DNA of 62,956 bases, filler included, from Stramenopiles sp. TOSAG23-6 (lineage: Eukaryota): assembly GCA_900128565.1 (NCBI GenBank). It is 6 parts of 6 records of this genome, joined end to end, with 100 filler letters (N's around TTAATTAATTAA, not from the genome) between each part and the next. Parts side by side here need not be neighbours in the genome. Positions count along the whole stretch, not along the records: positions 1 to 12,254 come from LT636209.1; 5 more parts are not named here. The stretch is one strand, 5' to 3'. Shown one piece after another: positions 57-32,451 of the stretch. Each line of letters starts with the position of its first letter. Positions within the stretch are counted from its first letter, which is position 1. The notes under the pieces were generated by a model. The model saw only the letters and a program-made list of their open reading frames with translations. It ran no database searches and was not told the DNA's origin. A program made the position numbers and the translations under genes.

Positions 57-1330
57 ATATCCCTTTTGAGTAAGAATTTTTCCAAGTTGACCTTCTTCGT
101 TGTAGTTATCAATGTCTTCGAATTGACCCACACAAATATGTATCGTGAAAAAATGATGTTAAAAAATTCGTTACAAAAACATTTTACGAAAAAAAAATAA
201 ATTCCGAAATTCAATTTTTAGAACGTACATTATCAACAAAAAGTTGAGGATATTTTGCTCGCTCGCCAATTTCAAAAAGCTCATTACGACGATCCTTTAA
301 CATCGAATCCATTCCATCAACAACTTCGAGTTTACCTGATGCGACTAAAGCCTCTTGGTTACCGCCCATGTAAAACAAAAAAGTTTGTCAAATTTGAAAT
401 TCGTTAGGGTAAATTTTAAAAAAAAGTTTGTCAAATTTGAAATTCGTTAGGGTAAATTTTAAAAAAAAGTTAGGTAAAAATTGTCATGAAAACGTACATA
501 TGTGTTGTAACCCAAGTAGTCACGTCGGATACCTGAGACCAAACTGGTTGTTGTTGCCCTGAAGTGATTAATAGGGTAACTTTATCTGGTGCATCGGTTG
601 AATCTGGAAGCGCATTCTTTGAAATTGATAATTTTTCAACTTCCTTCTCCACTGTTTTTTCAGTCACAACATCGTTACTTTTTGTCGTTGACGCGTTTTG
701 AGCGGTGTATGTTTCACCATGTGATACAGTAGTGACATTGCCACCTACTTCACCGCTGTAACCATTTCGAAAGTCGTATTTTTGCACTTGATGCGCAGCG
801 CCAGCTGACCGTAATTGTTTCTCAAGATCTTTTACAGTGATATCGTTACGACAGTGCGCTTTCAGAGTAAGATGAACACCGTCAAAATACTCTTTTACAC
901 CACTTGTGAAAGAAGATAACTTCGCCTTTACTAAGTTTGGCACATTTTCCCCAGTCCAACAAATAAAACCTAATTTAGTGCGTCTGCTGGTGACACCGCC
1001 ACGTTCATCGATACCAGTAACACGGAAACCAATAAAGGTTATCTCATCATCACTCACTTTAGACAAAAAATCAGGAACACCACCTATACAATGCGGGTAA
1101 TATGCGATGGTAATACAGGTAAATAAACAATAATTTTATCAAAAACAATTCAAGTATGTAATAAATACAAAATATGGTCCCCAACACTTGACTTGTAAAC
1201 GTTGCTTTTTTGGGTTTTTTTTCTTTTTTTTCAGAAAGTTACATATAACCCAACTACAATCTGTATCATCGGCATCAACAATCCGCTTCCATAACGCAGG
1301 AAGCTCCGCAGCAGGTTGGACAAGAGACAT
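57..1330 (-). CDS. Coactosin-like ADF-H domain protein with C-terminal SH3BGR/glutaredoxin-like domain (3' end may run off window)
   Basis: ADF-H motifs (WVIC, FIGFRV, RTKLGFICWTGENV, KAKLSS); after splicing 368-497 and 138-228 reads YPQLFVDNICVGQFEDIDNYNEEGQL. First intron (~1085-1170) boundaries unresolved. Confidence 0.7.
138..228 (-). mobile_element. Introner-like intron GT-AT (degenerate core)
   Basis: AAT|GTACGT...CGATACAT|ATT restores PQLFVDN-ICVG. Confidence 0.8.
368..497 (-). mobile_element. Introner-like intron GT-AT with internal tandem duplication
   Basis: AT|GTACGT...TTACAT|G joins two open frames; ~45 bp internal segment duplicated. Confidence 0.75.
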
Positions 1331-1708
1331 TCTAAGGTTCTACTTCACAAATGGCTACCAAAATCAAGAGTAAAAGAAGACAATCTCAAAAATATGGCCA
1401 TTCGAAAAAAAAAAATGTCAAAATCTGAAGAACAACACGAAAAATGAAAAATTATTTTGTGTGAATTTTGTAACGTTTTCCTCAGAACCTTCAGAAAGTT
1501 GTACTTAAGTATATACTAGTCAAAACTGAGCTTCAACACAACATCTTCTAAACAATCTGTGTTGTAAGGTGTATTTAGAACACTGGAACTCCCTTTTAGT
1601 GCACCTAGGTTGAACTAGTGATTATATTATTATTATTGTACAGAGATTTATAAAAAGTGAGAAATTGGCTGTTTAACTAGTAGAGAAACTCTCAAGATAT
1701 CAAAAAGA

Positions 1709-2590
1709 ATGGCTAATATGCAAAACGGTTTAGATATGGTAGAGGAGCAGGTACCTAAGGAATCACTCATTAAATCGGATATTCACACTCCCAATACAAA
1801 AGTAAATGAGTCTAGAAAGTTACCTTTCAGCGATGATACTCTCATAGACTCTTTGTGGGGTTTTACTACAGAAATTTTATCAGCGGCTCGGCAAGATTTG
1901 ACTAGTATAGGTGCAAAAGCTACACAAGATTTATCTGACTTTGGAAATATTCTCATTGCTGATACAAATGAAATTGCAAAGACAACAGCAACTTCATTGA
2001 GTGAACTCGCAAATATGTTACTCCAAGTAGATGATCTTTGTCATGAAAATGTTGACGAAGGAAAAGAAATGACTGATTTTTCAGAAAAAAGAAAACTTTT
2101 ACAGAAATCCTTCAAAAAAGTGTGTCCAAATGATTCACTATTCACAGAAAATAAATACGAGAAGAATAATTCTTCGACGCCAGTTGATTCTATAACAAAA
2201 CAGGCTATAGTGTCTCCAAATGTTAAAGAATGGGGAAAACATAAACAAAATAAATCTTGCTCTTTTCTAGGTCTCAAAACTGAAGGAGAGAGCGTTGTTG
2301 GAAATGCCGGTGGACTGAATGATATTCTTAGTCTCGCATTACAAGGACAACAATTTATTGATTATACTCTCAAAAGTGATGAAAATGGAGAAACTAAATC
2401 AGAGAAAAAAATAAAGAAAAGGAGTAAACCGCAAATATCTGAAAAACAAAAAAAAGCAGTACACCAAAACAATAAAGCATCATCTTCTGAAAATGATAGC
2501 TGGTGTGAAGTAGATTCTGAAGAAGATTCTTCGGGCATGAGCAGCTGGGGCGAAGTTAGTGATATCCCAGAGAAGGTACCTGTAGAATAA
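1709..2590 (+). CDS. Hypothetical protein (293 aa, acidic/Ser-rich C-terminus)
   Basis: Uninterrupted ATG-initiated ORF; no family recognised. Confidence 0.65.
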   Translation: MANMQNGLDMVEEQVPKESLIKSDIHTPNTKVNESRKLPFSDDTLIDSLWGFTTEILSAARQDLTSIGAKATQDLSDFGNILIADTNEIAKTTATSLSELANMLLQVDDLCHENVDEGKEMTDFSEKRKLLQKSFKKVCPNDSLFTENKYEKNNSSTPVDSITKQAIVSPNVKEWGKHKQNKSCSFLGLKTEGESVVGNAGGLNDILSLALQGQQFIDYTLKSDENGETKSEKKIKKRSKPQISEKQKKAVHQNNKASSSENDSWCEVDSEEDSSGMSSWGEVSDIPEKVPVE

Positions 2591-2700
2591 ATATTTACAA
2601 AAACACACAACTTTGTTGTAAGATTCAATAATAAACAAAATTTTATGGTGACTTTCTGAAGGAACTATTCGTCAATTTGTTTGAGTTTGTTCCTTTAAAT

Positions 2701-3084
2701 TTACTTCATTGGACCCTCTAATATTTCTTTACTAAACTCTACCTTTTCTTTCTTACGCCCACCAAATGTGATAGCACCTGTTTTCCCTTCGCGGATGGGT
2801 GTTTCCTCAATAAGAGCAGCTGCTGCCACACGTTCCTTTTCTTCTAATTTTTCTAACTCTACGCTTTTTATTGGGACAATCCGAGGTTTGCACAGCACTT
2901 CACTGAGATTCCCTTTTTCAGAATAAACTAAGCCTGCTTTAGGCAAAACATGTAATGTAAATGTATAAATAGAAACTTCAGTTGAGAATACAGTTTTCTG
3001 TAGGAAAAGATAATGCCTTGAGTACAATACCATCTACTATAAAAAGTTCATAAACTTACCAATTACTTCAGAGAGCTCTTCCAT
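2701..3084 (-). CDS. BBIP1: BBSome-interacting protein 1 (BBIP10)
   Basis: VLPKAGLVYSE...VLCKPRIVPIKSVELEKLE resembles BBIP1; short first exon MEELSE at 3067-3084 inferred. Confidence 0.8.
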
Positions 3085-3586
3085 AATTCTTAAAAACCCA
3101 AAGTTTGAAATATAATAATGATTAAAAAAAAATAATCAAATAAAATTTCAATGAAATACAACTTAATTATGGTGGGGTCGACACTTGAGCAAACACAATC
3201 TGCAATAACAAAGAGAGACAAAAGACGATTTTCTACGTTGTAATAAATAGGAAGGACTAAAATGACATTGTGGATATTGTGGATGATTGTTTACTTTAGT
3301 GATACCCGGTACCACTCTTTGAATCTTGAGATTTGCTACCTTTCAGCGTCAAAGAACAAATTTTAATTTTTTTTATCGAAAATTTTTGACATTTGAGCAA
3401 CAAATTTGCTACCTTTCTGTTCGCGTCAGGCAGAGCGGAGCGGGGTTTTTTTGTTTGGTGCGAACACCATTATTTAATTAGTAGGGCAGATACATTACGG
3501 CAGATAATATATTACAACAAGGCAATTCTCTAAAAACAAAACCTAAAAACAAAGTTTATCCCTGTGAAAGTTCGAATTGGCTCTGG

Positions 3587-5976
3587 ATGCCAGGAGCCAA
3601 GAGGTCCTCAAAAAGGACTAAACCTGGGCCAGAGCCAACTGCTTGTCGCTGGTGTCATTTAACTACATGCAAGCATTGTCAGTGTCCAAGTTACCGAAAA
3701 TGCACACATGCTCCAGGTGAACCATGTGCAAAAGAGCGTTATGGGCGACGCCGAGTTTGCAACACATGTGAACGTCGCAAGCTCCTTCACTCGCAGAACG
3801 GGAAAAGCAAGCGTAAGCGCTCGAACACGAACTCCCAACGAGGCTTAAAAAATCGTTCTAGAAAATATAGTAAAACCGCGAACAATATTGGATCAAATTT
3901 CAATAGTGATGGCCGTCACCGCCTAAATCGCAATATCGGCAATGAACACTTATTGAATAAGTATCATCCAGGTTTGAATTCTTCTTCTGGAATAGTTCAA
4001 TTAAGAGGGAGTAATTCACTTGCCCCGGTGATGGATGGGCTACCTGGTGGAGATTCTATGTTGGGAACACGAGGTAATATGAATGGTATTAATTCTCTAA
4101 CTGAAGTCATAACAAACCGAGGGAACGTTCTTAAACCAATGAAAAGTGTACCAACATTGGTACCGGGTGTGGGTTCTAAAGCTATGATGAGATCTATCAC
4201 AGAAGCTGATGCATTACTACGCCAAAATGGTACAAACTGTTTTCCTAGTACAGAGGGTATTTTACCTCAGCCAACTTTGGGTCGTATGAGCTCTTTTGAG
4301 GGTATTTTATCTCAACCATCTTTAGGTCGTGCGAGTTCTTTAGAAGGATTTTTATCAAGAGAAAATTCCTTTATATCGAGTGGGTGTGGATCTACTTCAA
4401 AACCTCGAGGAACCCCTGGAACGGGAGAGGTGTTGATGATGCGACAAAATTCACTACTGCCTAGTGGAACAAGTGCGTTATCTGGTACAGAAGCTATCAC
4501 AGCAGCAAGGACAAGTTTTACACGAGGTGGTTCTTTGAGTGGAGGTTTAATTGGTGGAGGGGATGTTACAAATCCATCTATGTTTGCTTCTCCTACTTCT
4601 CTACCTAGAAGAAGTTCATGTACGTTGTCATCATCAATTTCAATTTTTTTTTCACAAAAAAAATTCATACTTAACATATTTTTTCTTACATTATTTTTCA
4701 CAATACATTATGTGGTTTAGCACCGATGCTAGCATCAACTTCGAGTATTAATTCCATAAACAGTGTTATTTTTGATAATGTAAATAATGTAAATGGACCA
4801 GACGAAAACTTACAGCGTAGTAAAAGCTTGAGGTTTGAGGATTCTTGTGCGAAGGATATTGGAAATGTCTCAGATCTTTGGCATTTTTTTAAAGGAAATA
4901 GCACCCCATCAAGTCTAGGAATGCAAATGATATCTACAGGTGATTTGAATACTGGCTCTATATCGACGTACAGCGCATCTAGTCCTTCGTCCACTGAAAA
5001 AATGTATGTTTTATTTTTTTTCAAATTCGATTTTTTGTTTCGTACGAAATTTTGTACCTAACGATTTTAATGTTTGAAATATTTTTTCATAATCCATGAA
5101 TCCAAATCAAAATGTTGTGAAATTCGGTCAGAGTACATCATTTGATTCCTCTTTTTCCCGAAAGATGCTTTCCCCAATCATTTCTCGAAAAGATGATGAT
5201 TTATCGCAGGATACGCTTCGCCGTAGTCAACTCGATCGACAGTTATCTTTAGATCAGCAGTGCAAAAAAATTACATTTGAAAAATCCGTCACAACAAGTG
5301 TAGACAAACCTGCTTCTAAAGATCAAACGGTTGCTTCTATTGAACAATCGATGTCACCTGTGTCATCCGAAGGTGAGTGGAGAGAAGCGACAGATCCAAA
5401 GTCAGGTCGATTGTATTATTGGAATGTACATTTTCATCATACAAATTCATTTTTTTTTACTATGAAAATTTCGTACCTAACGAATAAAAAAAATAACCCT
5501 AATTTTTCACAATATATGTTCTAACACGTGACGTCACGTGGGACAATCCGGTAAAAAAATATACTACAGAAAGAACAGTGACAAACACGAAATTTTATGA
5601 GAAAGACGAGAAAAATTCAAGTTTTTTGTCGTTTGCTACAAATGAAAATTTCGAAGATAAAAAAAGCAAAACATATTTTGATACTTCACGGAATTTTTTT
5701 GAATCCCAGGAAATTCGAGATAATCCTAACCCTAATGAAAAAAATGGTTCAATAAAGAATAATGATAAATTTAAATGTAAGTTTAACCCAACTGCTTTAA
5801 AAGATGTAACATACCAAAAGAATGGCGTGGAAAATGGTAATGTCAACCCTAATAATGCTACATTAAAAAAACAAATTAGGAAACAAAATTTGAAAATGGA
5901 ACCAGAAAATGCCAAAAATAATGTGTGTCAAGACTTACTTGAGATTGAGAAAGAGAACACCGTTGTCGTTGTTTGA
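3587..5976 (+). CDS. Protein with Cys/His-rich N-terminus, low-complexity middle and a WW domain; 4 exons
   Basis: Four ORFs join in frame on removing 4620-4708, 5004-5097, 5426-5517; WW motif WREATDPKSGRLYYWN|VLTRDVTWDNP is rebuilt across the third intron. Confidence 0.8.
4620..4708 (+). mobile_element. Introner-like intron GT-AT
   Basis: AT|GTACGT...CAATACAT; phase 1 join is in frame. Confidence 0.8.
5004..5097 (+). mobile_element. Introner-like intron GT-AT
   Basis: AT|GTATGT, full core, ...AATCCAT; phase 2 join is in frame. Confidence 0.85.
5426..5517 (+). mobile_element. Introner-like intron GT-AT
   Basis: Removal restores WW-domain spacing. Confidence 0.9.
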
Positions 5977-6425
5977 AAAACAAATGTTTTTATTTTCAAA
6001 ACTCAAAAATGTTTAATTAATTTAAATTACGGTGTTTAAAAAAAAAAAAAATAACACATGTAAGTAATATAAAACAAAATGAAACAAATTAAAAAGAAGA
6101 AAAAAAGAGTGGAATAGCGTGAGATGTAGAATAATAAATTTAAAAAAAAAACTTCCTACAAAAAAAAAATAATATAATAGAGCACATATATTTATAACAG
6201 TTGTAATTTCTTGAGGCTCTAATAGATATTGAATTTGGTATGTAATAGTATAATAAAAAGTAACTTTGAAAAAGCACGTAACTGTTTTTTTCATTTTTTT
6301 TTCAGCCGTTATGATTATTTGACATTTTCCAAAAATGACGTCGTGTAGTCGTCATTCATTCTGCTTGGTACTAGTAGCAAAAAGATTCCCAAAACGCCAT
6401 TTTAAAATTTCAAAAAACAAAGACA

Positions 6426-8374
6426 ATGTCAGATTTGAAAGAAAATGGAACAGAAGAGGAAATGAAATTACTTGCACCCCCTCTACCACCAGAAAAGGCA
6501 ACCCTCACATGTCGATGTCCACAGGCTGGTAGTAGTCGGTTCACAAAAGACGCATCTGGGAATATATTACGTGGTGTAGACAAAAACGGCAATCCAATCG
6601 TGTACCTTGATATTTATACACCACAAGGTCTGCTGCCTGTACCAATTCCTCACGATGTTACACCAGGTGAGAAATTTGAAGTTGATTATATAGTTCGAAT
6701 GCCTTCTTCTCAAGCAAAAATGAATAGAGAAGGCACCGAGGAAAAGAGTGAAGCATCTTTGCCAGTTGCAATTGCAGAGTACACAAGACCTATGATATCT
6801 TCACCGCCAGTTCCGAAAGACGCCCAATGTAACATCTGTGGTAAGGGACCAAACGAACGGGCGGATATGATCCGTCCTTGTAATTGCGCAGGATATGTTC
6901 ACCGGAAATGTCTTGATAATTGGCGTGCTACACAACCAAATGCTTTTACTAAATGCCAGCTTTGTAATTTTAAGTATATTTTTGAGCAAGTAACTCAGAA
7001 AGAAGAAGACGAAAAGACTAAGAAATGCAAGCAGCATAAATTTCGAGCCCTTGTTGCTAGAGATGTCATCTTTGTCTTTTTGGGTATACAGCTTATTATT
7101 GTTGGTCTTGCAGTACTAATTTGGCTCCTGGATGGAAAACAACATTTTGGAGATGCTTATGAAAGAGAAAAGTTTCCTGACAAGTACCAATGTGATGAAG
7201 GTTCTTTAATCAAATTCTTTGGATGTCCGCGATATTTTGGCAAATCATTTTATTATGCTTGTGGTCTTATTGTATTCCTATTTACCGTAGGATTTACTGC
7301 GATGACAAGCTATTTCTGTTGCAGTGGAGAAAACGCCTGCGGTGAGTGTTGTTCTCAATCAGGTTGTTCAGGTTGTTATTGGGATAGTTGGGATTGCTTT
7401 TATTTATGGTATTGTTGCAGTGGAAATGGAGGTGGGAATTCATATTATAGTGGGAGTAGTTCAGGCTGTCAATTATGTTGTGAGTCATGTCAATGCGCTG
7501 ATGCTTCCTGTAGTAACGCTGGTAACTGTAACTGCGGTGATTGTGACGGTGGTGGTGGAGGTGATGCCGCAGCTTTCATTCTAATGTTTTTTCTTGTAGT
7601 AGCTGTCATAGTCGTTGCTATTTTTGTGGTGATTGGGGTATGGATTGTTCTATTTGCTATAGTATCTGCAATACAACGGATACTTCAAAAACATATGCAT
7701 GTACTGCAAAAAAGAGAGTTATGTAAAAAATGGGTTGTTGAAGACCAAGCCGGGCGATTAGCCCTTGATAAGGTTGAAACAGAATACATTTCAACTGCAA
7801 ACCCAGTCAGTGTTAACGATAATTTGAGTGGCGTACAAGTTCCTGCTGGTACTCTTTGTGTTGGTGACTTTGTTGCCGCACGATATCCAGGGTTTGATGG
7901 AAACGCCGAAAATCCATGGTTTCAAGCTGAAGTTACGGCGATTTTAACGAGTGGCATAGAATTGAAATATGCTGACGGTGATGTTAGTCAAATAGTAAAT
8001 GAAAAGTTCAGTGATGTCAAGTTCGCACCTATGGCTCCAGCAACTTTGGGTAAAGGTAGTCATGTATGTTTTATTTTTTTTCAAATTCGATTTTTTTTTT
8101 CATACTAAATTTTGTACCTAAGCTAACGAGTTTTTTTTTGAAATATTTTTCCAAAATACATCGATCAAATGATTTAGCCACGGCACGAAGTAGTTATGGA
8201 ATGGATTCCTTTTCTGTTTACGATATTCCTTTGTCCAAGTCTGATCGCAACCTTGGACTCGACGCAGCTGCTAAAGAGGTAAAAGATGTGCGTGCTAGAG
8301 ACTCGTACTTCAATGAGAATGTAGTTATTTCAGTTGAGGATGATTTAAGGAAGTCAGGAATTACTGATTGGTAA
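6426..8374 (+). CDS. RING-CH (MARCH-like) membrane E3 ligase with Cys-rich loop and Tudor/Agenet-like segment
   Basis: CNIC...PCNCAGYVHRKCLDNWR...CQLC; several hydrophobic helices; last exon joined via 8064-8161. Confidence 0.8.
8064..8161 (+). mobile_element. Introner-like intron GT-AT
   Basis: CAT|GTATGT...AAAATACAT; phase 0. Confidence 0.85.
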
Positions 8375-8463
8375 TTTCAAAAATAATTCAAAAAGATTTA
8401 TAACAATTAAATTTTATGAACTTGTTATAAAAGTAGTATTCTCACATCTGTTACTAAAATTTC

Positions 8464-9877
8464 TTACAATATATTATCAACTTTATCTAAACACATTGCT
8501 AATAACGCCATTCGCAGTGATAGGCCACACCCTGCCTGTCGAAAATATGCTGCTCTATGTATTGTAGAAAAATATTTCAAAAAAAAATCGTTAGGTACAA
8601 AATATCGTATGAAAAAAAAATCGAATTTGAAAAAAAGTAAAACATACATGGTCATCATCAACAGCTACATCAATTTCATCCACTCTTGGCAGAGGGTGCA
8701 GAACGATCATATTGGAAGCAGCAAGCTTCATGTCTTCTGTATTTAATACATATAAACCTTTGCAGTTTTCATACTCCTCCAGACAGGAAAATCATGTATT
8801 GTGAAGAAATATTTTTTTCGTAAAAAAAAATCGTTAGATAGGGAATTTTTTTAATTTTAATTTTTTTTTTTTAGTAATTTTTGTATAAAAATGAAATTCA
8901 TCCTGAAAACGTACGTTCCCTTTGAATACGCGTCATATAGAAAACATCAGTTGAACCAATAATATCCCGATAATCTTCACTTTCTGACACTTGAACTCCG
9001 GCGTTTTTTAGTTCTTGAATGTATTTCTTTGGCATCCTTAAAATGTCAGATGTATTGTGAAAAATATTTTTTTTGTAAAATTTGTTAGGTACAAAATTTC
9101 GTATGAAAAAAAATTTAGACAAAAAATTGAAAAAAAATAAAACATACGTGCAACAAAATTGATTTTGACACCATCAAACCGAGAAAGCAAACGTGACAAA
9201 GAATGCACAGTGCGACCATTTTTCAAATCTCCCACCATTGTTACCGTTATATTATCAGGTGATTCAATGCCAAGCTCCTGGATTATTGTAAAAATGTCCA
9301 ACAAACTTTGTGTTGGGTGTTCACCAGCTCCATCTCCTGCGTTAATAACAGGGTTGTTCGCTAAGAGGGAAGCTGAGGCAACGCTACCTACTAGAGGGTG
9401 TCGCATTGCAATGATATTTGTATACTCCTCCATTATGCGAATAGTGTCCGAATATGACTCACCCTTTTGCGTAGAAGATGCTGTTGAATCTAGTTGAAGA
9501 ACTTGACCCCCAAGACGCATCATTGCAGCAGCAAAACTACTAGATGTCCGAGTTGAAGGTTCAAAGAAGAGGTTTCCAAGAATACAACCTTTGCAATAAT
9601 CAACTTGACTTTGAGTTTGTCTTACTTCATGCATATGCGCAGCGACTTTCATTACAGTTTCGATACTCTGGCGATCAAATTGATTGGAAGAAAGCACATG
9701 CGATTTTTTTAGAGGGTTCACCGAGTCACTCAACGGCACTCGCATGCTTGTCATTCTTTTTAGTTTTTGAAGTCGTGTATCGCGATCATCTGAAGGCAAA
9801 CTTATGGAAGAGAAAGCCTTGGATAACCCTGCATTCTGTGTGGGTAACCAACGATGAAATACTCGAATGGAACGCAT
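8464..9877 (-). CDS. pyrB: Aspartate carbamoyltransferase, monofunctional, with N-terminal presequence; 4 exons
   Basis: FFEPSTRT, MRHP, NAGDGAGEHPTQ, VGDLKNGRTVHSL, YMTRIQRERF, HPLPRVDEI, RAAYFRQA. Confidence 0.95.
8557..8647 (-). mobile_element. Introner-like intron GT-AT
   Basis: Restores VDDDH|RAAYFRQA. Confidence 0.92.
8794..8914 (-). mobile_element. Introner-like intron GT-AT
   Basis: C|GTACGT...AATACAT|GA gives the conserved Arg of QRERF. Confidence 0.92.
9050..9147 (-). mobile_element. Introner-like intron GT-AT
   Basis: C|GTATGT...AATACAT|CT gives the conserved Pro of FVAPDILRMP. Confidence 0.92.
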
Positions 9878-10162
9878 GTTGCTAAGAAGATTTCCTAATG
9901 TTAATCTTGTTGTTGAATAGGATAATTGTACGTACCCTGTGTACCCTGCAGTCAAATTTGAATTCTTTGAATTGTGTCTACAAACCACGCGTTTGAAATA
10001 TTCGTACCATTTTGGTACGGTTTTAAAATTATTGTGATGTTATATAATAATCACGTGATCATCAGATTCTACGTATACAGGAGGCAACTTGAACCTCTCC
10101 TCCTCATTCGTTCTCAAAAGAAAACACTATTGATCAAAAGAAAACATTATTTAAACAATCTA

Positions 10163-12202
10163 ATGATGCTCCGGACTTTGTTTAAGAATACGAAGCAGCA
10201 TTTCACAAAGAGGTCTTTAAATACCCTCAACTCAACGGCTGCAAAATGTACACCTCAAGCCAACGCAGAACTTGTTGAAGTTGAAGCAAAGGAAACTCAG
10301 TCAGCTAAACTCTGGGGTGGACGATTTGAGAAAGATACCGATGCTTCAGTTGTTTCCTGGGCAGAGTCGTTAACGTGTGATGAGGAAATGATTGTAGAAG
10401 ATTTATGGGGATCAATCGCACATGTTTCGATGCTAGGTCGACAAGGTGTCATTCCAGCGGATGAAGCAGCTCAAATTTTGACCACTCTTGTTGGTTTTCA
10501 AGACTCTGCCATGAGTGGGGAAATGGATTTTTTTGACAAAAAATTTTCCAACCATGATGACGTTCATATGAATATGGAAGCCCGTCTTATTGATGCTACG
10601 TCGATGGAAGTTGGAGGTAAAATGCATACGACACGTTCTCGCAATGATCAAGTACCTGTGAGTTCTCAGCTGCACACACGAAACCGGCTACTAGAATTGA
10701 GAGAAAACCTCGGAAAATCAATAACTGCTTTTCTTGATCGAGCCCGTGAGCCTGGTTCACTTGAAGCCGTCATGCCTGGATATACACACTACCAGCATGC
10801 ACAACCTATCTCAATTGCGTTTTGGATGTCACATTATGCCGCTGTGCTTGTGAGGGATCTGGAAAGACTTAAGGCTGCCTACGATGTCGTAGATGAAAAT
10901 CCTTTGGGTATTTTATATTCANTACAATTAATACTACTGTTTTTTTATTAGGTACAAAATTGCGTACAAAAAAAACTACATGAGCTCTTTTACAATGAGA
11001 CAACTATTTGAATATTACTTCTAATATATTTATATTACATAATTAACATATGACACACATTATAGGCTCAGGCGCAATAAGTGGTACGTCATTTCCTATA
11101 GACAGATTATGTATGTTTTATTATTTTTTTTACAAAAAAATCGAATTTATTTTTTGTACGAAATTTTGTACCTAACAATTTTTTTTAGATTTTTTTTCAA
11201 AATATTTTTCCAAAATACATTAACAACTGAACTTTTAGGCTTTCAAAATGTTCGCGCACACTCGCTTGATGCCACAGGTAACAGAGATTGGATGTGCCAA
11301 GTTCTCGCAGCTAATGCGACATTGCATAGCACATGGAGTCGTTTTGCTGGTGAGCTTATTACATGTATGTTTTCTTTTTAATTTCAATTTGTTTTTTCGT
11401 ACGAAATTTCGTACCTAACAATTCTTTTTGTGATTTCGTGTTTTTTCACAATACACGGAGTAGTTATGAGTATCGAACCGTTACTCTTGATGATGGTTTT
11501 GCGATGGGTTCGTCAATGATGCCTCAGAAGAAAAATCCAGGCCCATGTGAATTACTCCGAGGTCGTGCAGGTATCATGAATGGGTATCTAACTGCAGGAA
11601 TGACAATGGTACATGTATGTTTTATTTTTTTGAATTTCGAATTTAATTTTTTTTTCGTACGAAATTTTGTACCTAACGAATTTTTTACGAAAAAAAAAAT
11701 ATTTTTTTTACAATACATGGGCTTCCGTCTGGGTATAATCGCGACTTTCATGAAGAAAAAGAATTGCTATTTGCATCATGCTCAATGTACGTTTTCAAAA
11801 ATTGTTTTTCCTTTAGTACGAAATTTCGTACCTAACGCTTTTTTTTAGTGTTTGTTGGATGTTTTCAAAAATTGAAGTTTTACCTAATTTTTTTTTTTTG
11901 AACTAAAATGAAAATTCAATACCTAACAAAAACGTTTTTTTTATGTTTTATTTTTTTGAATTTCGAATTTATTTTTTTTTCGTACCACATTTTGTACCTA
12001 ACGATTTTTTTACTTACGAAAAATATGTTTCCCAATATATGGCGAATCGTGCAACTGAAGTTATTCCGTCGCTGGTAGCATCAACGACATTCAATACCGA
12101 TAGAATGAAGGAATTATGTGATAAAAACTTCATGACAGCGACAGAATTGGCTAATTATTTGGTATCAGATCATGATGTTCCTTTTCGAGCGACACATCAT
12201 AT
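10163..12202 (+). CDS. ASL: Argininosuccinate lyase (3' truncated at contig end)
   Basis: [83 protein letters not shown] across 6 exons. Confidence 0.95.
10908..11065 (+). other. Canonical GT-AG intron
   Basis: G|GTATTT...TATAG|GC restores NPLG-SGA. Confidence 0.9.
11111..11220 (+). mobile_element. Introner-like intron GT-AT
   Basis: Restores [12 protein letters not shown]. Confidence 0.92.
11365..11456 (+). mobile_element. Introner-like intron GT-AC
   Basis: T|GTATGT...AATACAC|GG gives the conserved Trp of ELITWSS. Confidence 0.9.
11615..11718 (+). mobile_element. Introner-like intron GT-AT
   Basis: Restores [12 protein letters not shown]. Confidence 0.92.
11787..12040 (+). mobile_element. 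Compound introner-like intron GT-AT (several partial copies)
   Basis: 254 nt, four TACCTAA motifs; phase 2 join is in frame. Confidence 0.85.
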
Positions 12203-12254
12203 GTATGTTTTATTTTTTTTTTTACAAAAAAATCGAATTTATTTTTCGTACGAA
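12203..12254 (+). mobile_element. Introner-like intron, 5' part (contig end)
   Basis: AT|GTATGTTTT...TTTCGTACGAA. Confidence 0.85.
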
Positions 12255-12354: not shown

Positions 12355-13030
12355 CTCTCCATCTGAATATGCACAATCTTTACCTTCTTCACTAGGTTTC
12401 ACTATCACATAAAACTTTTTCATACACTGCGCATCACATTCTGAAAATGAACCTCGACAATCTTGCGTTTTGGTTCCACAGGCGGGTCCTTCATGTCCTG
12501 TACCAGAACAGTCACATATAGCTGTGCCTAACGCATTTGCTACACAAACTCCCTTGTTAAGACATTGAACACTAGAGCAATCAACGCATCGATCCGACTT
12601 GCTTTCATCAAATGTACACTTCGTTTGCTCTCCATCTGAATATGCACAATCTTTACCTTCTTCACTAGGTTTCACTATCACATAAAACTTTTTCATACAC
12701 TGCGCATCACATTCTGAAAATGAACCTCGACAATCTTGCGTTTTGGTTCCACAGGCGGGTCCTTCATGTCCTGTACCAGAACAGTCACATATAGCTGTGC
12801 CTAACGCATTTGCTACACAAACTCCCTTGTTAAGACATTGAACACTAGAGCAATCAACGCATCGATCCGACTTGCTTTCATCAAATGTACACTTCGTTTG
12901 CTCTCCATCTGAATATGCACAATCTTTACCTTCAGCAGTAGGTTTCACTTTCACAACATACTCTTTCATACAGTTCGTATCACATTCTGAAAATGAACCT
13001 TGGCAATCAAGAGTTTTAGTTCCGCAATCT
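12355..13030 (-). repeat. 273-bp (91-aa) tandem coding repeat, about 2.5 copies
   Basis: ctctccatctgaatatgcac recurs at 12355, 12628, 12901. Confidence 0.95.
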
Positions 13031-13149
13031 TTCCCTTCGTATCCATCTTCGCACTCTTGATCACGACTAGCTAAAATATCAGCGACTGAAGTAATAGAAA
13101 ATCCGGGTACTGTGCTCACAAGGAGCAAAATCACAGTGAGGCTCCTCAT
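12355..13149 (-). CDS. Secreted protein with tandem EGF-like + TSP1-like repeats (3' truncated)
   Basis: Signal-peptide-like start; CLNKGVC..CDCSGTGHEGPAC and DCRGSFSECDAQC..GKDC units. Confidence 0.8.
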
Positions 13150-13515
13150 AAATGTATTACTTATGAAAAAGTCACCGAGGTAATCCTTTTTAAGAGGAGC
13201 AACGAGTTAAGCGACGAAGATCAAAGCAGCGAGCGAGCGGAGAGCGAGTTCGAGTTGAGTTCAACTTCGAAGTTCTGACTTTCGACTGAAAAACAATTTT
13301 GAAATTTATTTGAGATTTTTGAACAGCTACTTTTTGATTAACTTGCAAGCCACGGATCTACAATGACCAAACAAATGTGTATCCTAATTGTTAAATACAA
13401 TTGATATTATATCTCTCAGATATAATATATAGTGAATACATTGGATTCATGATAATTGTTCAAAATATAGAAGAGTGCTGAATCCTTGAAATTATAATTT
13501 ATTTATTTTTCCGCT

Positions 13516-16500
13516 TCATCGGATAAGAAACTCGCCTCCACTGTAATGAATTGCTGTCAGCAATCTTTGTCGCATTACTTCATCAGAGGAATATGGTGGC
13601 AACTCAATTTGAAAGAAGCATGTGTGCGCTAATGGTAGCCTGCTGGTATCCGAATTTCCCTTAGTTAGCTTAAACGGGCGTGGCCATACGCTTTCTCTTG
13701 GTAGTCTACTTCTACCCCACACAAATTGTAAAAACTTTGATTTATCGTCTTGGGAAAAACTTTTCAAAACACGCCAAAATCGCCGACATGGTGAATCGCT
13801 TGCGGAATACCCGTGGTATGTTGTGTGTTTCTTAATTATTTCAATATCGATATTTGGATTTCCACAAACACAAACCTCCAATTCATTCCAATTCAGTAAA
13901 CGCAATGCTCTGTCGGGAACAAGGGTCACAATACCACGACGTATAGCAGCAACCTGTTGATAACTTTCATGGAGTAAATGTATTTTTGAAAAATATTTGA
14001 AAAAAAAATCGTTAGGTACAAAATTTCGTACGAAAAAAATCGAATTTGAAAAAAAAATAAAACATACATGTTTACGAGCCCTATTTACGTACTCTAGACG
14101 ATTGACCCAAGTGACGGCCACGTCTCTTCCCCCAGGTACTAATTCTGAAATCCAGGTATGAACGTCCAAATCATTATCTATTGCAGCAGTTGATGGTCCT
14201 AAGGTACCTATAGTAAAATTTAAATCAGGGAATTTTTCATGAAATGCCTTTTCAATCTCATTAAGTTCCATAGAAGAGTTTACAAAATTTATATGTGAAT
14301 CTTCTACTGCTTCTCCCGATTTATTATCATAGTATGCTGAAAATTCTTCTATCGATGCAAGACGTCGAGCTTCTACTACATGCACTGAAGCTAATCCAGT
14401 TTCTTGTGATGAATTTGAGTTAGGGTTTGCTAATTGTTCCCAGACTAATGGTGCAAATTCAAATGGTAAAGCAGCTGATGTTCGCAGAGAAATTCCAATT
14501 AATTTGCCTAAAAATTCAAACATTTCTATCGATATTTTAGAAGTATGACGTGGATCCGGAAGAAACTTGTCATTGTTGGTACCTTCGCCATTGCGACCAT
14601 TTGGGCAGAGCATCATAAGATTGATACTTCGAGAATCCCCAGAGAAAAGCTCTAGAACAATTCTCGATAAAGTGTCTCTGTACAATCCTCCCCAATCTAA
14701 CCCTTCTTCGCCTTTAAATTTTACCGAAAAAAGACGATTTCTGGAATCTAATTTTGCTCGAAGTCGACGACAAGAAACATGATGAAGTCTTGAAAATGCC
14801 TGTGCAAATAGACCTCGTGAAAATTGCGGGTCTCTTAATTTTTCACCTCCCTCTAATGTATGCCTAACAAGTTCATTATCAAGTTGTACAACTAAATTTG
14901 GAGGTTTTGCATTTAAAGCTTTTTCAACCACTGATGCTAATAAAGTTGATAATTCATTTATTTTCTGTTGCAGTTTTTTCTTTCTGGAGTCAGATATTGA
15001 TTTCTTATCAACCTGATTATTAATTGATGTTATTTGCCGTCGGATTCGTTTTATACGCCTATCAGTGCTAGGATTGACCCATTGAGATGCCTCTATTGCA
15101 GACCGCAATAATTTGGTTTTGACTTCGCGGAAAACACAATGGCTTAATGTCTCTGACAACAAGCAACCTACTGACCAACTTGAAGAAGATGCCTGTAAGT
15201 CCACAAGCTCAATACAGTCTGCGAATTTTTTATTCCAGAATTGAAGTAAAGCAAAGCGATATCTCAAATCTGACAGTGGGACATTTGAGATTGCATGGTA
15301 CTTTAGCTTGCATTTCTTTGTTAATGTAACTTGATCGCAATCCATAATCAGCAGCGACCCACCCTTTTCAATTTCTTGATTATTACACCAACAAATTAAA
15401 GATACATCCATTTGATATTTCCAGTGAGACATCGCAAGAACTCTTTGTTCACAATCATACTTTGCACTTTTTGATTTCAGCCGAGAAGTATTCTTATCTT
15501 TGTAACCATTCGCGTGTAACCAAATTCTGGATGCCATCGTATCCGATAATCGTGAACCGTGTAATAAAGTGTACGATATCTCAACCACAGCAATCAAGGA
15601 ATCAAGTTGGGTCTCTGAAACTCCATCTTTTGTATGATGCAAAAGGCGGTTAATCAGTGGAGGGTCAAGACCAGTTTCACTGCGCAATCCGAAAAGGCCT
15701 CTTGAATATTTTTTGGTTGTTGGTAGAGAAGGCGGCCACGAGAAATGCCACGTATCGTGACCACCTTGAGCGCGAGAAGGAAATGCTTTTACTGCTGCTG
15801 CTAGTTCAGCAAGTCGTTGCAAAGCTGGTGGCAAAAAAATATCGCCTTTTTTCTTTGCATGATCTACCATTCTGACTACTGCAGTCGGAAGATATCGAAG
15901 AGGTCTTAAATCTAAAATACCAACATACATTTTGCGTTCATTGGATACCCCTTTCGACATTTTAGATTTTGTATTTGAATCACTGCTTCCAATATTCAAT
16001 GAAGATGTACTTCGAAACTTCTCAGGACTTGAGAGAAGCTGTGTTAGCACCGCTACAATGCGCGATTTATATGGAGCTCCAGGAGTCCGAAGATAGCGTG
16101 AAAGAGCCGCTACAACATCGGCACAATATACACCGTTTCTGTTGCACTTTAAATCTGTAGAAATACTACCTACATTTCTAGTATTATCATTGGTATTTCT
16201 TTGAATTAGATTTTTTTGTTGTTTTTGATGATTAAAAAAATGTACTTGGTGTTTCTGTCTTGCAAGCTTGTTTTCTTCTTCAAGTAAAACTCCAAGCATC
16301 CAGCACGCCCACTCCAGAGAAGGTGAGTTTAATACTTGCTCTTCCCGAAGCCATTGTAGGCCTCGCATCGGAGAAACATCAAATCGAAATCCCCAATCCA
16401 TTCCCCCAAAACGATTTGATGAGCATCGACTATTGTCAGTGTTGGTATATCTAGGAACAGACCAAAATCTGTACATGAAAGCTTCGTTATGCACTACATA

Positions 16501-24688: not shown

Positions 24689-27600
24689 ATGTTTTTGAGT
24701 CAGTAAAATATAACTGTACGTTTTCATGATGAATTTTTTACCTGAATTTTTTACCTAAATTGTTTTTCACAGAAAATCGAAAGATTTTGAATCTAACGTA
24801 TTACAAACAAACATATTTTTTAACTATACATGTTTATTACTCGCTGGCCCAGGACTCTTAATCACTACAGCAATTACAGGTGGATTTGTCAAAGGTGTTG
24901 TCTATCCTGATTGGTCATGGGAATTATCGTTTTTGTTCGGGACGTTATTGTCAGCAACGGATCCCGTTGCTGTTGTCTCAGTCTTAAAAGAGTTAGGTTG
25001 CAAAAGTTTGTCCGTTACTATTGAAGGGGAAAGCTTACTCAATGATGGTGTTGCTGTTGTTATTTTTTCAATATTATTTCCATTTGTATCAGACAACGAA
25101 AATTTTGATGAGTCTTTTGAAAATATTTTTGTATTTTTTCTTCGAATGGCTCTCCTTGCCATAGTCTACGGTGCAGCCTCTGCTTGGTTAACATCGACAT
25201 GGCTGTATTATATATTCAATGATGGTATTTTAGAAGTAACAATTACTTTATTTTCAACATACTTGTTGTATTTCATTGCCGAATTTTATATACACACCTC
25301 CGGTGTACTGTCTGTAGTGGCATATGGTTTATATTTTGCGTCAATACATGTGACGTGCATTTCTATTTTGCACCTAACTTTGCACCTAACGATTCTTTAA
25401 AAATATTTTTTCGCAGTACATGAGCATGTGGTTACAGTATGGGAAGTATTTTCTTTTTGTGGTAACACTATATTATTTGGGTTAACAGGTTATGTTATAG
25501 GTAATTTCGACTTTTCGTATGTAGAGACGTATGATTGGCTGATTCTTTTTGTCTTATATGGTGTATGCACGGGTGCCCGTATTGTTGTCTTTGCCTCGAC
25601 ATATCCAATTCTAAAGAAAGGTGTGAATGGAATGACACCTGGTGATTGTATAGTTAGTATTTGGGGCGCTTTGAGAGGTGCTGTAGGTTTAGCACTTGCT
25701 CTGATGGTTCATAGTGATGCATTTACTATAGGAAAGTCATCCAAATATAACGAAGAAGGACGTTTGGTTCTATTCCACACATGTGGTATTGTTGTTCTCA
25801 CACTATTGGTGAATAGTACTTCAATTGAGAAATTATTGGATCATTTGGGATATACCTACATTCCACCCCAACAACAAAAAATTGTACAACTGGCATTAAA
25901 GCAGCTTCATGACGTAGCTGAAGATGAAATCCAACTTCTACAAAAAGACCCACTTCTGGCTTGTGCTAATTGGGATCATATCAAGAGTGTCGTGTTCGCC
26001 ATGGATGATATCCATATCGCTGATCAGTTAAGTGAAGAGCATCTAAACAAAGAAATCACTGATTCTCATACTATTGCAGAATCTCGAAGACGATTTCTAT
26101 TGTCAGTAAAGGCTGGGTATCATAAAATGTTTGAACACGGAATTCTTTCACCACAAGCTTTACGACATTTACTTGAAGCAAATGAAACTGCATATGATCA
26201 TCAGTATAGGCTTCATGATGAATGGGAAGCACTATTGGATGAAACGCCATTTTTAGCATATATTGCAAGAGATACAACACTTGCCCAGCATGAGCATGAT
26301 GATATTATGCAAAATACGAGAAAGAAGAAGAGGGGATTACATAAAGTTCTTAGCGAGAACGCAAAAACAATGCTATCTAGTATCCTTCCTGGCCAAGAAG
26401 GTAAAAAGGTGCGCGAGCAAGAGAGAGCGAGTATGTTTGCTTGGATGGCTGATTTATACCTCAAAGAAGTTGTCGTTGAAGAAAGTGGGCAGCGTCAAGG
26501 AGTTTTTGCATGGCTTTTACGGCGATTACTTGCAAGTCATGTATGCCTATGTTGTAACATGGTATCTGGATTTTTACATGCGCGTGAAGAATCTATGGAT
26601 GTTATCGTCAAATTTCTACATAATCATGGTGACAAGCAATCGTCTGGTCATGCACATGCAGATGCTGATGCTGTATTTGAAGCACAACGTACTTGGTTAC
26701 CCGCTTTGAGAGGGATGTATGTTTTCATCATTGCTTTGTTTTTTTTTTTTTCTTACGAAATTTCATACCTAACCCTTTCCTTTGTAAATAATTTTCACCG
26801 TACATGGTACACAGAGATATGAGTACAGCAACTCGAATACTTCTTCGTTGTCAAGAACTATTTCCTGATATTGCAGCTCAGAGTGAAACGCTTATTGGTG
26901 GACGTCATGCAATCAATATACAAAGAATAACAGTTCGCGAGTTGTGCCATGAAGGTCTTTTAGATAAAGAAGAAGAAGAAAAATTAATACATCAGCTTAA
27001 TGCGAAAATCAAACGATCACGGATGTGGTTACCACCCGCGGGTACTGGAGGAAGCCACAAAGCCATTATGTTACATAGTCTATCTTGGCTGAAATCATTA
27101 GGAGAAGAAACAAGTACAGTGTGCAATAGCCCTAAAGAACATAAAATAGTAGACGAGGAAGGCAAGGAAAAGATGTTTGAAAAGTTATTAGAAAACACAA
27201 AAACACTGAGTTTTTCTCGTATGGGATCTCATATTTTAGAGGCGAATGAACTTTGTAATACTGTATTTGTAGTTGCTCGTGGTAGTGTAGAAGTGGTTGT
27301 TCCTGAGACGATGTTACAAGCTGATAAAATACCAAAAAACGACAATTACAATGAGGAGAAATTTTCTAGTGTTACTGAAACTGAGGACTCCGGTAAGAGA
27401 AGTCAAGGAGGAATTCGTGTACTACAGTTAGGTAGGGGTAGTCCATTTAATCAATTGGCTTTTCTTACTCAAACAAAGAATCCATTTATGATACGAACTT
27501 CGTCAAGAATTTGTGTTGTTTTTGCAATTAGTGGAGACTTTGTTCGCACCCAACAGAGTGTTATATCCGCATTATGGCAGCAAGTTGCAACGGACATGGC

Positions 27601-28550: not shown

Positions 28551-29859
28551 TTACTCAACTTTAGTTGTTAAATCAGCTAACAAGGTACCATGTGAATGAA
28601 AAAATATGTCAATTTTAGGTGTTTTTTTGTTAGGTACAAAATTTACTATGAAAACAAATTCAAAAAACAGCCAGAAAGAAAAATAATCGTTGGGTCAGAA
28701 TTTTCTATCCAAGAAAAAGATAAATGAATTTGAAATTCATCTTGAAAACACACCCTAGGGATTGGGATAAACCAATATAAAGAAAAATGTTCCCCAAATA
28801 TTTCCACAAGTCCTACATGTATTTTGGAAAAATATTTCAAAAAAAAAAAAAAAAAAATTTGTTAGGTACAAAATTTCGTACTAAAAAAAAAATCGATTTT
28901 TTTGTAAAAAAAAAGATAAAACATACATATACACTGCGGTCATCTTTTCCATCTTTATTTTGCATTCTATCGATTGTTGACAAATCATCGCGAACGGCGT
29001 CGTACTGGTCACAAGACATGTATTGTGAAAAAATATGTTGCATTCGGAATTGTAAAACAAAATCATTAGGTACGAAATTTCATACTAAAAACAAAAATTT
29101 GAAATTGATAATGAAAATGTACATTGCACAGACAAATGCAAGAAAGAAGATAGAGCATATGCACATTATGATGCAAACTAACATTCCCCATGGCGGAAGC
29201 GGATCAATACATATAGTATCTCGACTTAAGCAAAAAATGCCACGTGATAAAAACATAGTCACTGCAAAGGCTTCACCTAAAATTACATAAAACAGAAATA
29301 ATAGAAAATATTTCTGATTATATTTCCCCACACAATTGTTAACCCAAGGACAGTGGTGATCCATTCTTTGGACACACCGATTACAAGTACTACAATGATG
29401 TACCCCTGGCGTCTTATAGTTCAGACAATGTCGGCATATTCTTAAATAGCTATCTTGTAAGTATGGCTCCGCGCTCTGGCGCGATTTAAGATATTCTTTG
29501 TAATCCTCTAAAGTAACTTTATTCAATTCTTGACAACCTGGGTCAGTGAGCATACACCGTAAGTGGCATAGTGCAGACATAAAAGATAAAAATGTTATTA
29601 CAAGCACACATAATATTCCAGGCAAGGACCACTTGAACCATGGTAATATCACTATGTTAACGACAGACCACTCCGTCAACGCAATAACGAAGAGGCCTAA
29701 TCCAGCACAAAATATTCCACAACAGTCGAGATGTACACACCATGCAGACAAGCCACAACTATTACAATGTGGACTGTCATCGGAACATTTAAGACCAAAA
29801 ATTCGCCAACACGACAGCCACGCATCACAACATGGCTCTTCTAAACCATCACAACACAT
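28551..29859 (-). CDS. DHHC palmitoyltransferase (ZDHHC3/7-like); 4 exons
   Basis: HHCSTCNRCVQRMDHHCPWVNNCVG; spliced C-terminus STIDRMQ...EIFGEHFSLYWFIP. Confidence 0.92.
28590..28753 (-). mobile_element. Introner-like intron GT-AT
   Basis: GTGTGTTTT donor, AAATTTTGTACCTAAC core, ends TTCACAT. Confidence 0.7.
28817..28926 (-). mobile_element. Introner-like intron GT-AT
   Basis: TAT|GTATGT...AAAATACAT|GTA. Confidence 0.88.
29018..29122 (-). mobile_element. Introner-like intron GT-AT
   Basis: AT|GTACAT...CAATACAT|G. Confidence 0.88.
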
Positions 29860-30065: not shown

Positions 30066-32451
30066 ATGAATTGCAGACACGTTAAAACTGGAGTAATGTT
30101 GTTTTTGTTGTATTCAACACAACTTATCAATTGCGCAAAAATGGTAGTGTTTATGTTACCAGGAGAACAGCCAGGCTCAACTTTTGATGAGAAAAACCCG
30201 TTCGAAACGAATCCACGTCTTGAAAATAAACAGTGGGATTGGATTAAAGCTGTAAATGACTGGCATTATGCGATGCTCAACGACGACTCTCGAAATCATG
30301 CTTTCAATAACGCACTCAAGGAGGTTGTACGTCCAGGATCAATTGTTCTTGATGTTGGCACAGGTTCTGGGCTTCTTGCAATGATGGCAGCGCGTGCTGG
30401 CGGGCCTACGTGCGCTGTAGTAGGTATAGAAGGAAATAGCGACATGGCTGAGATAGCCAAGCTTGTTGTTCAGGATAACCAACTACAGGATCAAATTACT
30501 GTTTTAAATAAGAGATCTAACAAATTTTCCGTTGAAGAATTTCATTCCACCGTTGAAAATATTTTCGAGAGACAATCTCTAAATGTTGAATTACCTACAA
30601 GTCCAAGTAAAAATAATGAGAAAGATTTAGCTGACGTCATAGTTGCTGAGTTATTTGGTTCTGCACTATTAGGTGAAGGAGCATTATATTTCATTCGCGA
30701 TGTTAGGAAACGGTTGTTAAAACCTGGTGGGACGATCATTCCAGCAGCTGGCGCACAAAATTTACGATTAGTAAACTCAAAATCTTTAGGAAAAATTACG
30801 AGTGTTGACAATTGGGATGGATTTGACTTGAGCCGTATGTACGTGTTTACCATGATTTTCTAATTTATATTTTTGTACCCATTTCAAAGGTAACTTATTA
30901 CCTAATGAATTTCCAATTTGATATATTTCCCTAAAATATATGAATATAGCACGAGATACTGACACATTATTTACAAAGCGATTGGGTGTACCACGTACGT
31001 TTTCAAAATTGAATTTTAACCTAACTTTTTTTTTTATAGAAAATCTTGTACCTAACGATTTTTTTTCTCCAAAAAAAAATATATATTTTTTTACAATACA
31101 GATTATATGCTTGGACTAGAATCGCTCGCCGTTGATATTCCAATATATGACATAGACTTTCATACTTGTAACCCCGAAGATATTCCAGATTCTACAATAT
31201 ATTTTCGAATTAGGGTTTTGAAAGCAGGAATAATCCATGCTGTGTCTAATCATTTTACCCTTTTTCTTGATCGAAATAGAAAGATTACAATAAGTTCTGA
31301 TGTACGTTTTCATTTTTTTTTGCCTAATTTTGTTTCGTACGAAATTTTGTACCTAATAACAAAAATCTTGTAATATTTTTTCACAATACATGCACCTGAG
31401 ATACCAAGATGGGTTCATTGGGGGCCAAGAATGCAGTTGATTGAAGACTGGGACTTTTCTGAGGATGGATCTGGTGTAGAAGAAAAACGTTCACATAATT
31501 TACCTAAGTTGTTTCATGTTGAAAAGGGTGAATTTATTGAAGTTATAGTAAATTTCGCTGGGCATCACGGTCAGTACGGAGCTATGCAAATACGACTAAA
31601 TAGAGTTGATCCACCATTGCCTAATTTATATAGTGTACTTCATAGTAATCTTGGTATAGTTAATACAAATGAAACATATGAGAATGACATTCATGCCTTA
31701 CAAAAATTATGTAATACAGATATAATTATTGAAGTTTCTGTTACAAATGCAAAACAAATAACTTTGTATGTTTTATATGAATTTCTAATTTAATTTTTTT
31801 TCATACGAAATGTAGTACCTAACGATTTTTTTTTTGAAATATTTTTTCACAATACTTGTTTCAAACGAGAGGACCGAAGTGGCAAATCAAAAAAGACGCG
31901 GACACGTTTTGCAGAAACAACTTTTTACTTGGAAAGGGTGTTTCGTGTATCAAGACTTTAACAAAAACTGCAGAAAATATCCGTGCAAACTATGTACGTT
32001 TTCAAATTTAAATTCGACTATATTGTTTTTGTACTTAATTTTATACCTAACGAATTTCATTTTTTTTGAAATATTTTTTCTCAATGCATGATGATTCTGA
32101 GGACATATGCAAAATGGGAAAAGTAAATTTCAGTAATAAAGAAGACTGTGGTAATTACATATCATCTCAGTGTGGTTGGCTACATTTTCACGAAATTGAA
32201 GGCATTTTATCGAGCGACGACAAAAATAAAGAAAAACGTATTGTTAAAGATAGTATATATAAAAGGCGGGGAAGTACTAGCAATGATGTATGTTTTATTT
32301 TTTTTCAAATTCGATTTCTTTTTTCGTACGAAATTTTGTACCTAACGATTTTTTTTTGAAATATTTTTCCAAAATACATACCATTTCAGAACGTCCTGAA
32401 TTACAGGATATGGGTGGAATTGAGTTAGAGGGACCCATGGCAAGTTGGTAA
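30066..32451 (+). CDS. Protein arginine methyltransferase-like (PRMT7/9-type SAM domain) with hydrophobic N-terminus; 7 exons
   Basis: WHYAMLNDDSRN, VLDVGTGSGLLAMMAARAG, ADVIVAELFG, LLKPGGTIIP, RWVHWG; six element introns give one open frame. Confidence 0.82.
30839..30941 (+). mobile_element. Introner-like intron GT-AT (degenerate)
   Basis: AT|GTACGT...AAATATAT|G gives FDLSRMN. Confidence 0.78.
30995..31101 (+). mobile_element. Introner-like intron GT-AG
   Basis: Same body, ends CAATACAG; phase 1 in frame. Confidence 0.88.
31302..31391 (+). mobile_element. Introner-like intron GT-AT
   Basis: GAT|GTACGT...CAATACAT|GCA. Confidence 0.88.
31766..31857 (+). mobile_element. Introner-like intron GT-TT
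   Basis: TT|GTATGT...CAATACTT|G; next exon open in that phase. Confidence 0.75.
31994..32089 (+). mobile_element. Introner-like intron GT-AT
   Basis: TAT|GTACGT...CAATGCAT|GAT. Confidence 0.8.
32288..32379 (+). mobile_element. Introner-like intron GT-AT (near-consensus copy)
   Basis: GAT|GTATGT...AAAATACAT|ACC. Confidence 0.88.

Follow-up and report, generated by a model that had tools for sequence, protein, structure and literature searches.

Results

An AT-rich family of GT-starting introns

The window, by which we mean the whole 62,956-nt stretch of Stramenopiles sp. TOSAG23-6 DNA that was analysed, contains an argininosuccinate lyase gene and an aspartate carbamoyltransferase gene arranged head to head (8460-12202). 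An exon of the transcarbamylase gene is 100% identical to the public protein P0121, the label of which suggests a MAST-3 stramenopile, and the close relatives of the two genes, P0009 and P0123, hint at an intron-free locus with the same gene order. The sole clear GT-AG intron found in the window is an ordinary one in the lyase gene (10908-11065, plus strand). It harbours an antisense remnant (10947-10976, minus strand) of the element described here.

Motif and profile searches of the window recovered one AT-rich insert in about 45 copies, some of them whole and some partial. We catalogued 31 complete in-frame copies in 63 kb as a single intron family, in addition to three doubtful copies and further partial ones. 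All 31 copies start with GT and are oriented in sense to their own gene. All family counts refer to copies in the window and leave out copy 25350 (boundaries unsupported), copy 39166 (two units, joined out of frame), copy 49129 (a T run beside a gap as the 5' flank), the copies cut by a gap or a window edge (47, 12203, 36813, 37054, 49196, 49315, 61571 and 62393), the two antisense remnants and a degenerate stretch around 62057.

The donor reads GTAYRT or GTGTGT in every family copy (non-GT donors, 0/31), with G at +5 in 29/31 and T at +6 in 31/31, and is compatible with U1 and U6. Judged by motif only, the branch site is CTAAC in 25/31 copies and a near variant in six. The 3' ends depart from this ordinary picture: 25 introns end in AT, two in AG, two in TT, one in AC and one in TG, and 26/31 end in a YAY triplet. 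Thus, 29/31 family introns lack the terminal AG of U2-type introns. The two AG-ending copies (30995-31101 and 58773-58868, both plus strand) carry CAG at the family position, as judged from their in-frame joins, suggesting that AG is accepted there. A U12 type was rejected since the family shows neither the RTATCCTT donor nor the CCTTAAC branch site: ATATCC and GTATCC occur at no intron start, and the single CCTTAAC of the window lies outside the family copies. No RNA families were found in the window, and exact scans for element motifs were without a match both in viral and in metagenome contigs.

Several features bear on a possible mobile origin. The family consists of many similar introns at unrelated gene positions, as is characteristic of introners. 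Eight related lyase loci are uninterrupted at all five intron positions, although several of them may be transcripts or bacterial. The flanking dinucleotides agree as direct repeats in 21/31 copies (permuted mean 17.3, P 0.013), which is a weak signal of target-site duplication. The terminal inverted repeat covers four bases inside the element and six with the flanks, and is complete in 9/31 copies.

Placement of the intron ends

Most copies have AT on both sides, so that GT...AT and AT...AC readings give identical mRNA. The GT register is fixed by three asymmetric copies. A GT...AC copy in the lyase gene (11365-11456, plus strand) keeps W and not R in this register (749.3 versus 742.9 bits), and the W-containing motif is found in 61/70 lyase homologs. 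A GT...AT copy in the transcarbamylase gene (9050-9147, minus strand) keeps P and not S (469.2 versus 465.1 bits), and a register shifted by two gives a stop at a third copy, also GT...AT (8794-8914, minus strand). The AT-AC register was therefore rejected at all three, where it costs a conserved W, costs a conserved P and brings in a stop, respectively.

Homolog profiles showed the family position to be the best acceptor of 91-100 positions at 4/4 lyase and 3/3 transcarbamylase family introns. For two exchanger introns, it was the best among the few alternatives tried. In an asparaginase-family gene, a GT...TT copy (58214-58329, plus strand) has an end with neither A nor G, and the residue spacing fits: the flanking exons reach glycosylasparaginase residues 175 and 179, which leaves a spacing of exactly three residues. 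The remaining ends were placed by family alignment and frame only. Standard gene models of this lineage are wrong with respect to these introns, as P0121 misses 3/3 transcarbamylase junctions.

AG dinucleotides at individual acceptors

The transcarbamylase intron at 8557-8647 (minus strand; GT...AT, 91 nt) was identified at the best acceptor of 100 positions. As the first-pass annotation had noted, an AG follows the AT end by 2 nt (8555-8556) and would shift the frame of the RAAYFRQ segment. The AGs at +2, +4 and +7 are all out of frame and gave 424-427 bits as compared to 469.2 bits for the AT end, and the in-frame AG at +21 loses RAAYFRQ (435.8 bits). Of the three examples, this is the strong one, since the skipped site at +2 is a TAG.

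The lyase intron at 11111-11220 (plus strand; GT...AT, 110 nt) ends at the best acceptor of 91 positions in a profile of 70 homologs. Its CCTAAC motif (11171-11176) places the branch A, by inference, at 11175. A TTAG (11185-11188) lies between this motif and the AT end, and its use shifts the frame and gives a stop after 11 codons; the resulting product of 274 aa scored 403.9 bits against the argininosuccinate lyase profile, versus 440 aa and 749.3 bits for the AT acceptor. The earlier description was correct in these respects, but the TTAG is not next to the acceptor, being 32 nt away, and its skipping is borderline evidence because just 13 nt separate its G from the branch A. Branch points in human introns lie 17-50 nt from the acceptor (PMC12081236), and the shortest natural branch-acceptor distance in yeast is 10 nt (10.1101/2023.01.12.523824). 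Since 13 nt exceeds the yeast minimum, the TTAG is not certainly out of reach. Downstream, an in-frame exonic TTTTAG (11233-11238), 18 nt past the AT end, is a better competitor that the first-pass annotation did not mention, and is apparently unused. Its use would delete six conserved residues and lower the score from 749.3 to 723.9 bits, and the 7-residue spacing at this site occurs in 48 of the 49 lyase homologs that match the pattern (21/70 homologs are unmatched). Homology thus disfavours the TTTTAG, against which frame alone is insufficient.

The third example, a shortened family copy in a Na+/H+ exchanger gene (25350-25421, plus strand), had been put forward as a bypass of a GCAG close to the acceptor. 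The GCAG is present (25413-25416), but comparison with homologs does not support the intron as drawn and leaves its boundaries doubtful. Removal leaves 15 residues where 50/50 aligned homologs (59 examined) have 23-27, and deletes TCIS, which is common to the closest homolog P0241; nine homolog-kept residues are lost. The GCAG is in frame with a GC donor at 25357, a reading that scores slightly above the intron as drawn (576.1 versus 573.2 bits), and the best-scoring removals are of 45 nt and lack GT. The copy looks as if it was shortened at its 5' side by deletion or mis-assembly, and is unusable as evidence.

The proposed bypass of AGs therefore holds for exonic AGs past the intron end, which are ignored. 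It does not hold for the two upstream examples, neither of which shows the bypass of a usable AG, since one is branch-proximal and the other has doubtful boundaries.

RNA contigs at the lyase and transcarbamylase genes

Seven metatranscriptome runs contained 5-13% of the sampled words, and contigs of four runs were aligned to positions 500-12250. A contig from run X4 (record 30; 227 letters, depth 6) matches 8435-8556 with its first 122 letters, with one difference at 8521. The leftmost joint is predicted at 8556 for a cut after AT, and at 8554, 8552, 8549 or 8534 for the AGs. The contig retains the AGs, including the TAG at +2, and leaves the genome sequence at the intron edge, as predicted by the AT cut, although the strain might lack the insert; the support is a single contig, known from its first 122 letters. 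Among the RNA joints listed for the four runs over 500-12250, none falls at a family intron, an absence that carries no weight, and none of the contigs listed spans 11110/11221. A contig from run X1 (11492-11640) runs unchanged into the next intron at 11615, which shows that the insertion exists in another sample.

These data bear on the reading that nothing is spliced, the inserts being removed from DNA, strain-specific insertions or assembly artefacts. Contigs do end within elements, and one join at the least (39166) loses the frame, as such a reading would have it, but RNA splicing alone makes sense of the strand bias and of the donor and branch motifs, and an independent RNA run carries the insertion at 11615 without a difference. 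We regard this reading as highly improbable.

Contigs from X2 and X4, representing two studies, share a joint at 7842/8268 and thereby skip 425 nt (7843-8267, plus strand). This joint keeps the frame of the long form only with the AT-defined length of the intron at 8064-8161; the two AG alternatives shift the frame. The support that this gives to the AT end is indirect. The skipped segment has 5-nt direct repeats at its edges and GT in no register, its removal keeps the frame, and it comprises one family intron and a module that we take to be Tudor-like. Either other strains carry a DNA indel here, or the splice is an unusual one. Contigs of the element core were very deep in X1-X3 (bins to ~3700) and below 40 in X4, with exon bins alike (~1-5). 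Such depth means that the family must be present at many further loci or in many relatives.

Distribution of AGs around the acceptor

An exonic AG occurs within 12 nt after the end in 12/31 introns, with 17 AGs in +2..+12. Their density is close to ordinary, at 0.050 per nt in this interval versus 0.061 further out. The first exonic AG is out of frame in 21/29 introns that end in a non-AG dinucleotide. Strict first-AG scanning, against which the first-pass annotation had argued, thus fails: 29/31 introns do not end in AG, and the exonic AGs are ignored.

An alternative is that the real cut lies at in-frame AGs further downstream, or that retention is frequent and leads to transcript degradation. 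In 8/29 non-AG introns, 11111 included, the first exonic AG is in frame, and one RNA contig is unspliced into the intron at 11615. Both fit this alternative, but the 21 out-of-frame cases do not; the in-frame alternatives delete conserved residues, and core metabolic genes with three or more family introns are otherwise intact. Taken together, this makes a downstream cut or frequent retention improbable.

Upstream of the end the pattern differs. Only three AGs follow the branch site in the 31 introns, at branch+4, +10 and +13. From branch+14 to -3 there are 0 AGs in 745 nt, versus 16 in the 1763 nt before the branch (p 0.005), but the cut-off at branch+14 was chosen after the AG positions had been seen, which inflates the exclusion p values, and the copies are related. 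The region before the branch is itself AG-poor compared to shuffles (16 versus 39.9). A test based on rare Gs gave 0/13 versus 3/28 (p 0.54), and a test of A-to-G changes gave p 0.024 over -22..-3 and 0.30 over -10..-3. An exclusion of AGs before the end is thus suggestive, with mixed tests (p 0.005-0.54).

Such mixed results are also expected if the machinery is blind to AG, with a dedicated factor that binds the whole 3' block, AGs being irrelevant and the AG-free zone being inherited from the element. The family consensus has no AG in the zone, and the TT-ending copies lack both acceptor bases. On the other hand, each of the 27 Gs in the distal zone is preceded by T or C and none by A, and 3/4 last-base changes are to G, as if G were still favoured. 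We therefore consider AG-blindness unlikely, while giving it some weight; the machinery is probably not AG-blind, and the AG-free zone suggests that an AG within its reach would be used.

Position of the acceptor relative to the U tract

The acceptor had been proposed to be set by a conserved block at the intron's 3' end, or by pairing between the intron ends. The first proposal is supported, but its best-kept parts are a U/pyrimidine tract at -15..-11 and the last five bases, not AAATAT. Among the 16 more diverged copies, conservation was 0.91 for the U tract, 0.85 for TAC, 0.75 for CACAA and 0.61 for AAATAT. In the lyase intron the tract corresponds to 11206-11210, where it would act as the acceptor ruler, and the terminal TACAT to 11216-11220; position counts and the direct-repeat test suggest that its last AT is probably the duplicated target site. 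The tract has 5/5 pyrimidines in 28/31 copies and 4/5 in three, and the T run stops 9-11 nt before the cut in 27/31.

The distance from branch to end is 33-48 nt in 30/31 copies, and length changes fall mostly between the branch and the U tract. Some copies are lengthened or compound (11787-12040, 8794-8914, 28590-28753 and 368-497), a few of them with several branch-like motifs, the last of which stands as far from the end as in other copies. A leave-one-out profile of -15..-3 ranked the true end first in 29/31 introns and none of 54 competing AGs scored as high as the true end, a test that is partly circular, as a family profile had been used to locate most ends; common descent also gives young copies the same block. 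Taken by itself, the U tract ties for best in only 20/31 copies.

Pairing of the intron ends could instead position the cut, as in euglenid nonconventional introns. A helix of 5-6 bp between the ends is part of the minimum-energy fold in three of the six copies that were folded, including 11111 and 8647, and in copy 28753 the G+3:C-5 pair looks compensatory. In the three folds that contain the helix, however, z is -0.6 to -1.3, and at most four of the six pairs are kept in 10/31 copies (58214 keeps two). The covariation that the first-pass annotation had suggested looking for is absent: positions +4/-6 are C:A in 15 of the 31 copies and T:A in 13, with no compensating change for the mismatch. 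Moreover, the agreement of the flanks as direct repeats includes both TT/TT cases, in which pairing is impossible, and a transposon origin explains the inverted repeat. Positioning by end pairing thus has little probability. The euglenid type itself was rejected, as there is no covariation between the ends and both donor and branch motifs are present.

A hairpin between branch point and acceptor could hide AGs and shorten the distance, as in yeast COF1 and UBC13, where the mechanism is established (PMC3239191). The AAAATATTTT block is a palindrome, and would be suited to such a structure. Yet it is the least conserved part in older copies, and the segment is no more stable than shuffles: mean folding z was -0.04 at 20 C and -0.02 at 37 C, with z below -1 in only 4/31 and 6/31 copies, respectively, and no shared structure. 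The hairpin was therefore rejected as very improbable.

A separate 16-nt near-palindrome precedes the branch motif in 25/31 copies (11155-11172 in the lyase intron, and equivalents). No two-sided change between standard pairs was found in it, and it may for this reason be a DNA-level binding site.

Further element copies in the window

Five of the six gaps in the window adjoin an element. At 38976-39166 (minus strand) two element units form an out-of-frame join, and at 37418-37520 (minus strand) an element links a racemase to another frame, presumably C2-like; both may be assembly chimeras formed inside the repeat. An antisense remnant at 40833-40886 (minus strand) is read in frame in the N-terminal part of a DEAD-box helicase, and has apparently been turned into coding sequence. 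At 13978-14067 (minus strand), a 90-nt stop-free copy forms a continuous in-frame part of a 3700-codon gene, whose terminal domain we take to be HECT-like. As the copy is free of stops and in frame, its retention would escape gene callers. A gap-interrupted 273-nt tandem repeat at 12355-13206 (minus strand) encodes a cysteine-rich repeat protein.

Discussion

Our results are best accounted for by transposon-derived introns that the major (U2) spliceosome excises with relaxed fidelity at the acceptor, an interpretation that we hold to be probable without being secure. The introns begin with GTAYGT and have a CTAAC-type motif 33-48 nt before the end and a U tract at -15..-11, and homology places the acceptors at a fixed offset whatever the last two bases (AT, AC or TT). 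The donor and branch site would be read normally by U1/U6 and U2. A factor that binds the U tract, U2AF2-like or in the Prp8/Slu7/Prp18 region, may then hold the RNA such that the active site receives the bond lying about 10 nt behind the tract, with the last five bases helping. Base checking in the second step would be relaxed, with CAT taken best and TAT, CAG, CAC and TT accepted as well. AGs past the end would be out of register and ignored, those within ~13 nt of the branch A would be too close, and those in between probably compete and are selected against. As to origin, the family would derive from a small DNA transposon whose ends read GTAY...RTAC and which, by duplicating AT, supplies its own acceptor.

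A bolder version is that a wild-type spliceosome uses the U tract as a ruler with single-nucleotide precision for most acceptors, prefers CAT over a TAG at +2 and cuts after TT, as a natural and precise counterpart of prp18-deficient splicing. We put this forward tentatively, as a possibility that falls somewhat short of even chances. If true, it would separate acceptor positioning from acceptor chemistry. The choice among nearby acceptor sites is usually confounded with the need for AG; in a genome where the donor and branch site of most introns are normal and the 3' end is AT, AC or TT, the positional rule could be read directly. Thousands of near-identical substrates, with natural AG variants at many offsets, would expose it.

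Literature on non-canonical introns in MAST-3 or marine stramenopiles did not yield the family, which the supplements of introner surveys might list, and two MAST genome papers do not mention splicing. AT-ending transposon introns are already known from tunicates, and the family is a variant of this kind of intron.

The non-canonical U2 introns of Fritillaria borealis and F. pellucida are likewise transposon-derived, with a duplicated target and inverted ends (PMC13326754, PMC11282704). AT is the commonest 3' end also there (34% and 44%), and the YAY intron end is shared. The major classes in Fritillaria start with AG, whereas all 31 introns studied here start with GTAYRT or GTGTGT, and the present introns belong to one dominant family in which the branch motif is strong and the U-tract offset fixed, in an unrelated lineage. 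In Fritillaria, the AT ends are accompanied by a duplicated and divergent U2AF (PMC13326754). Introners of the Chrysochromulina type similarly carry the 5' splice site in the element, obtain the 3' site from target duplication and occur in many copies at unrelated positions, but their duplication is of 4 bp, as compared to 2 bp here, giving AT and not AG (PMC9860276).

With respect to the acceptor, the closest parallels come from yeast lacking Prp18, in which the best non-G acceptors, CAU and UAU, rely on poly(U) tracts (10.1101/2023.01.12.523824). The use of CAU, UAU and BG acceptors, the help from poly(U) and a minimum branch distance are common to both systems. In the yeast mutant such acceptors arise as minor errors, and slippage to +1 and +2 occurs (10.1101/2023.01.12.523824), whereas the non-AG sites of the family are apparently the main and exact ones, even against a TAG at +2. 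The 3' splice site of C. elegans, recognized by both U2AF subunits, is defined by a short, fixed-offset U tract that can also support acceptors other than AG, but the tract adjoins the AG and AG is the rule, unlike the ~10 nt between tract and cut in the family (PMC4484395). Human introns share the scarcity of AGs between branch and acceptor and a branch A 17-50 nt upstream (PMC12081236, PMC11482624). They proceed to the next AG, in contrast to the family, which stops at a non-AG end despite an AG within 2-12 nt.
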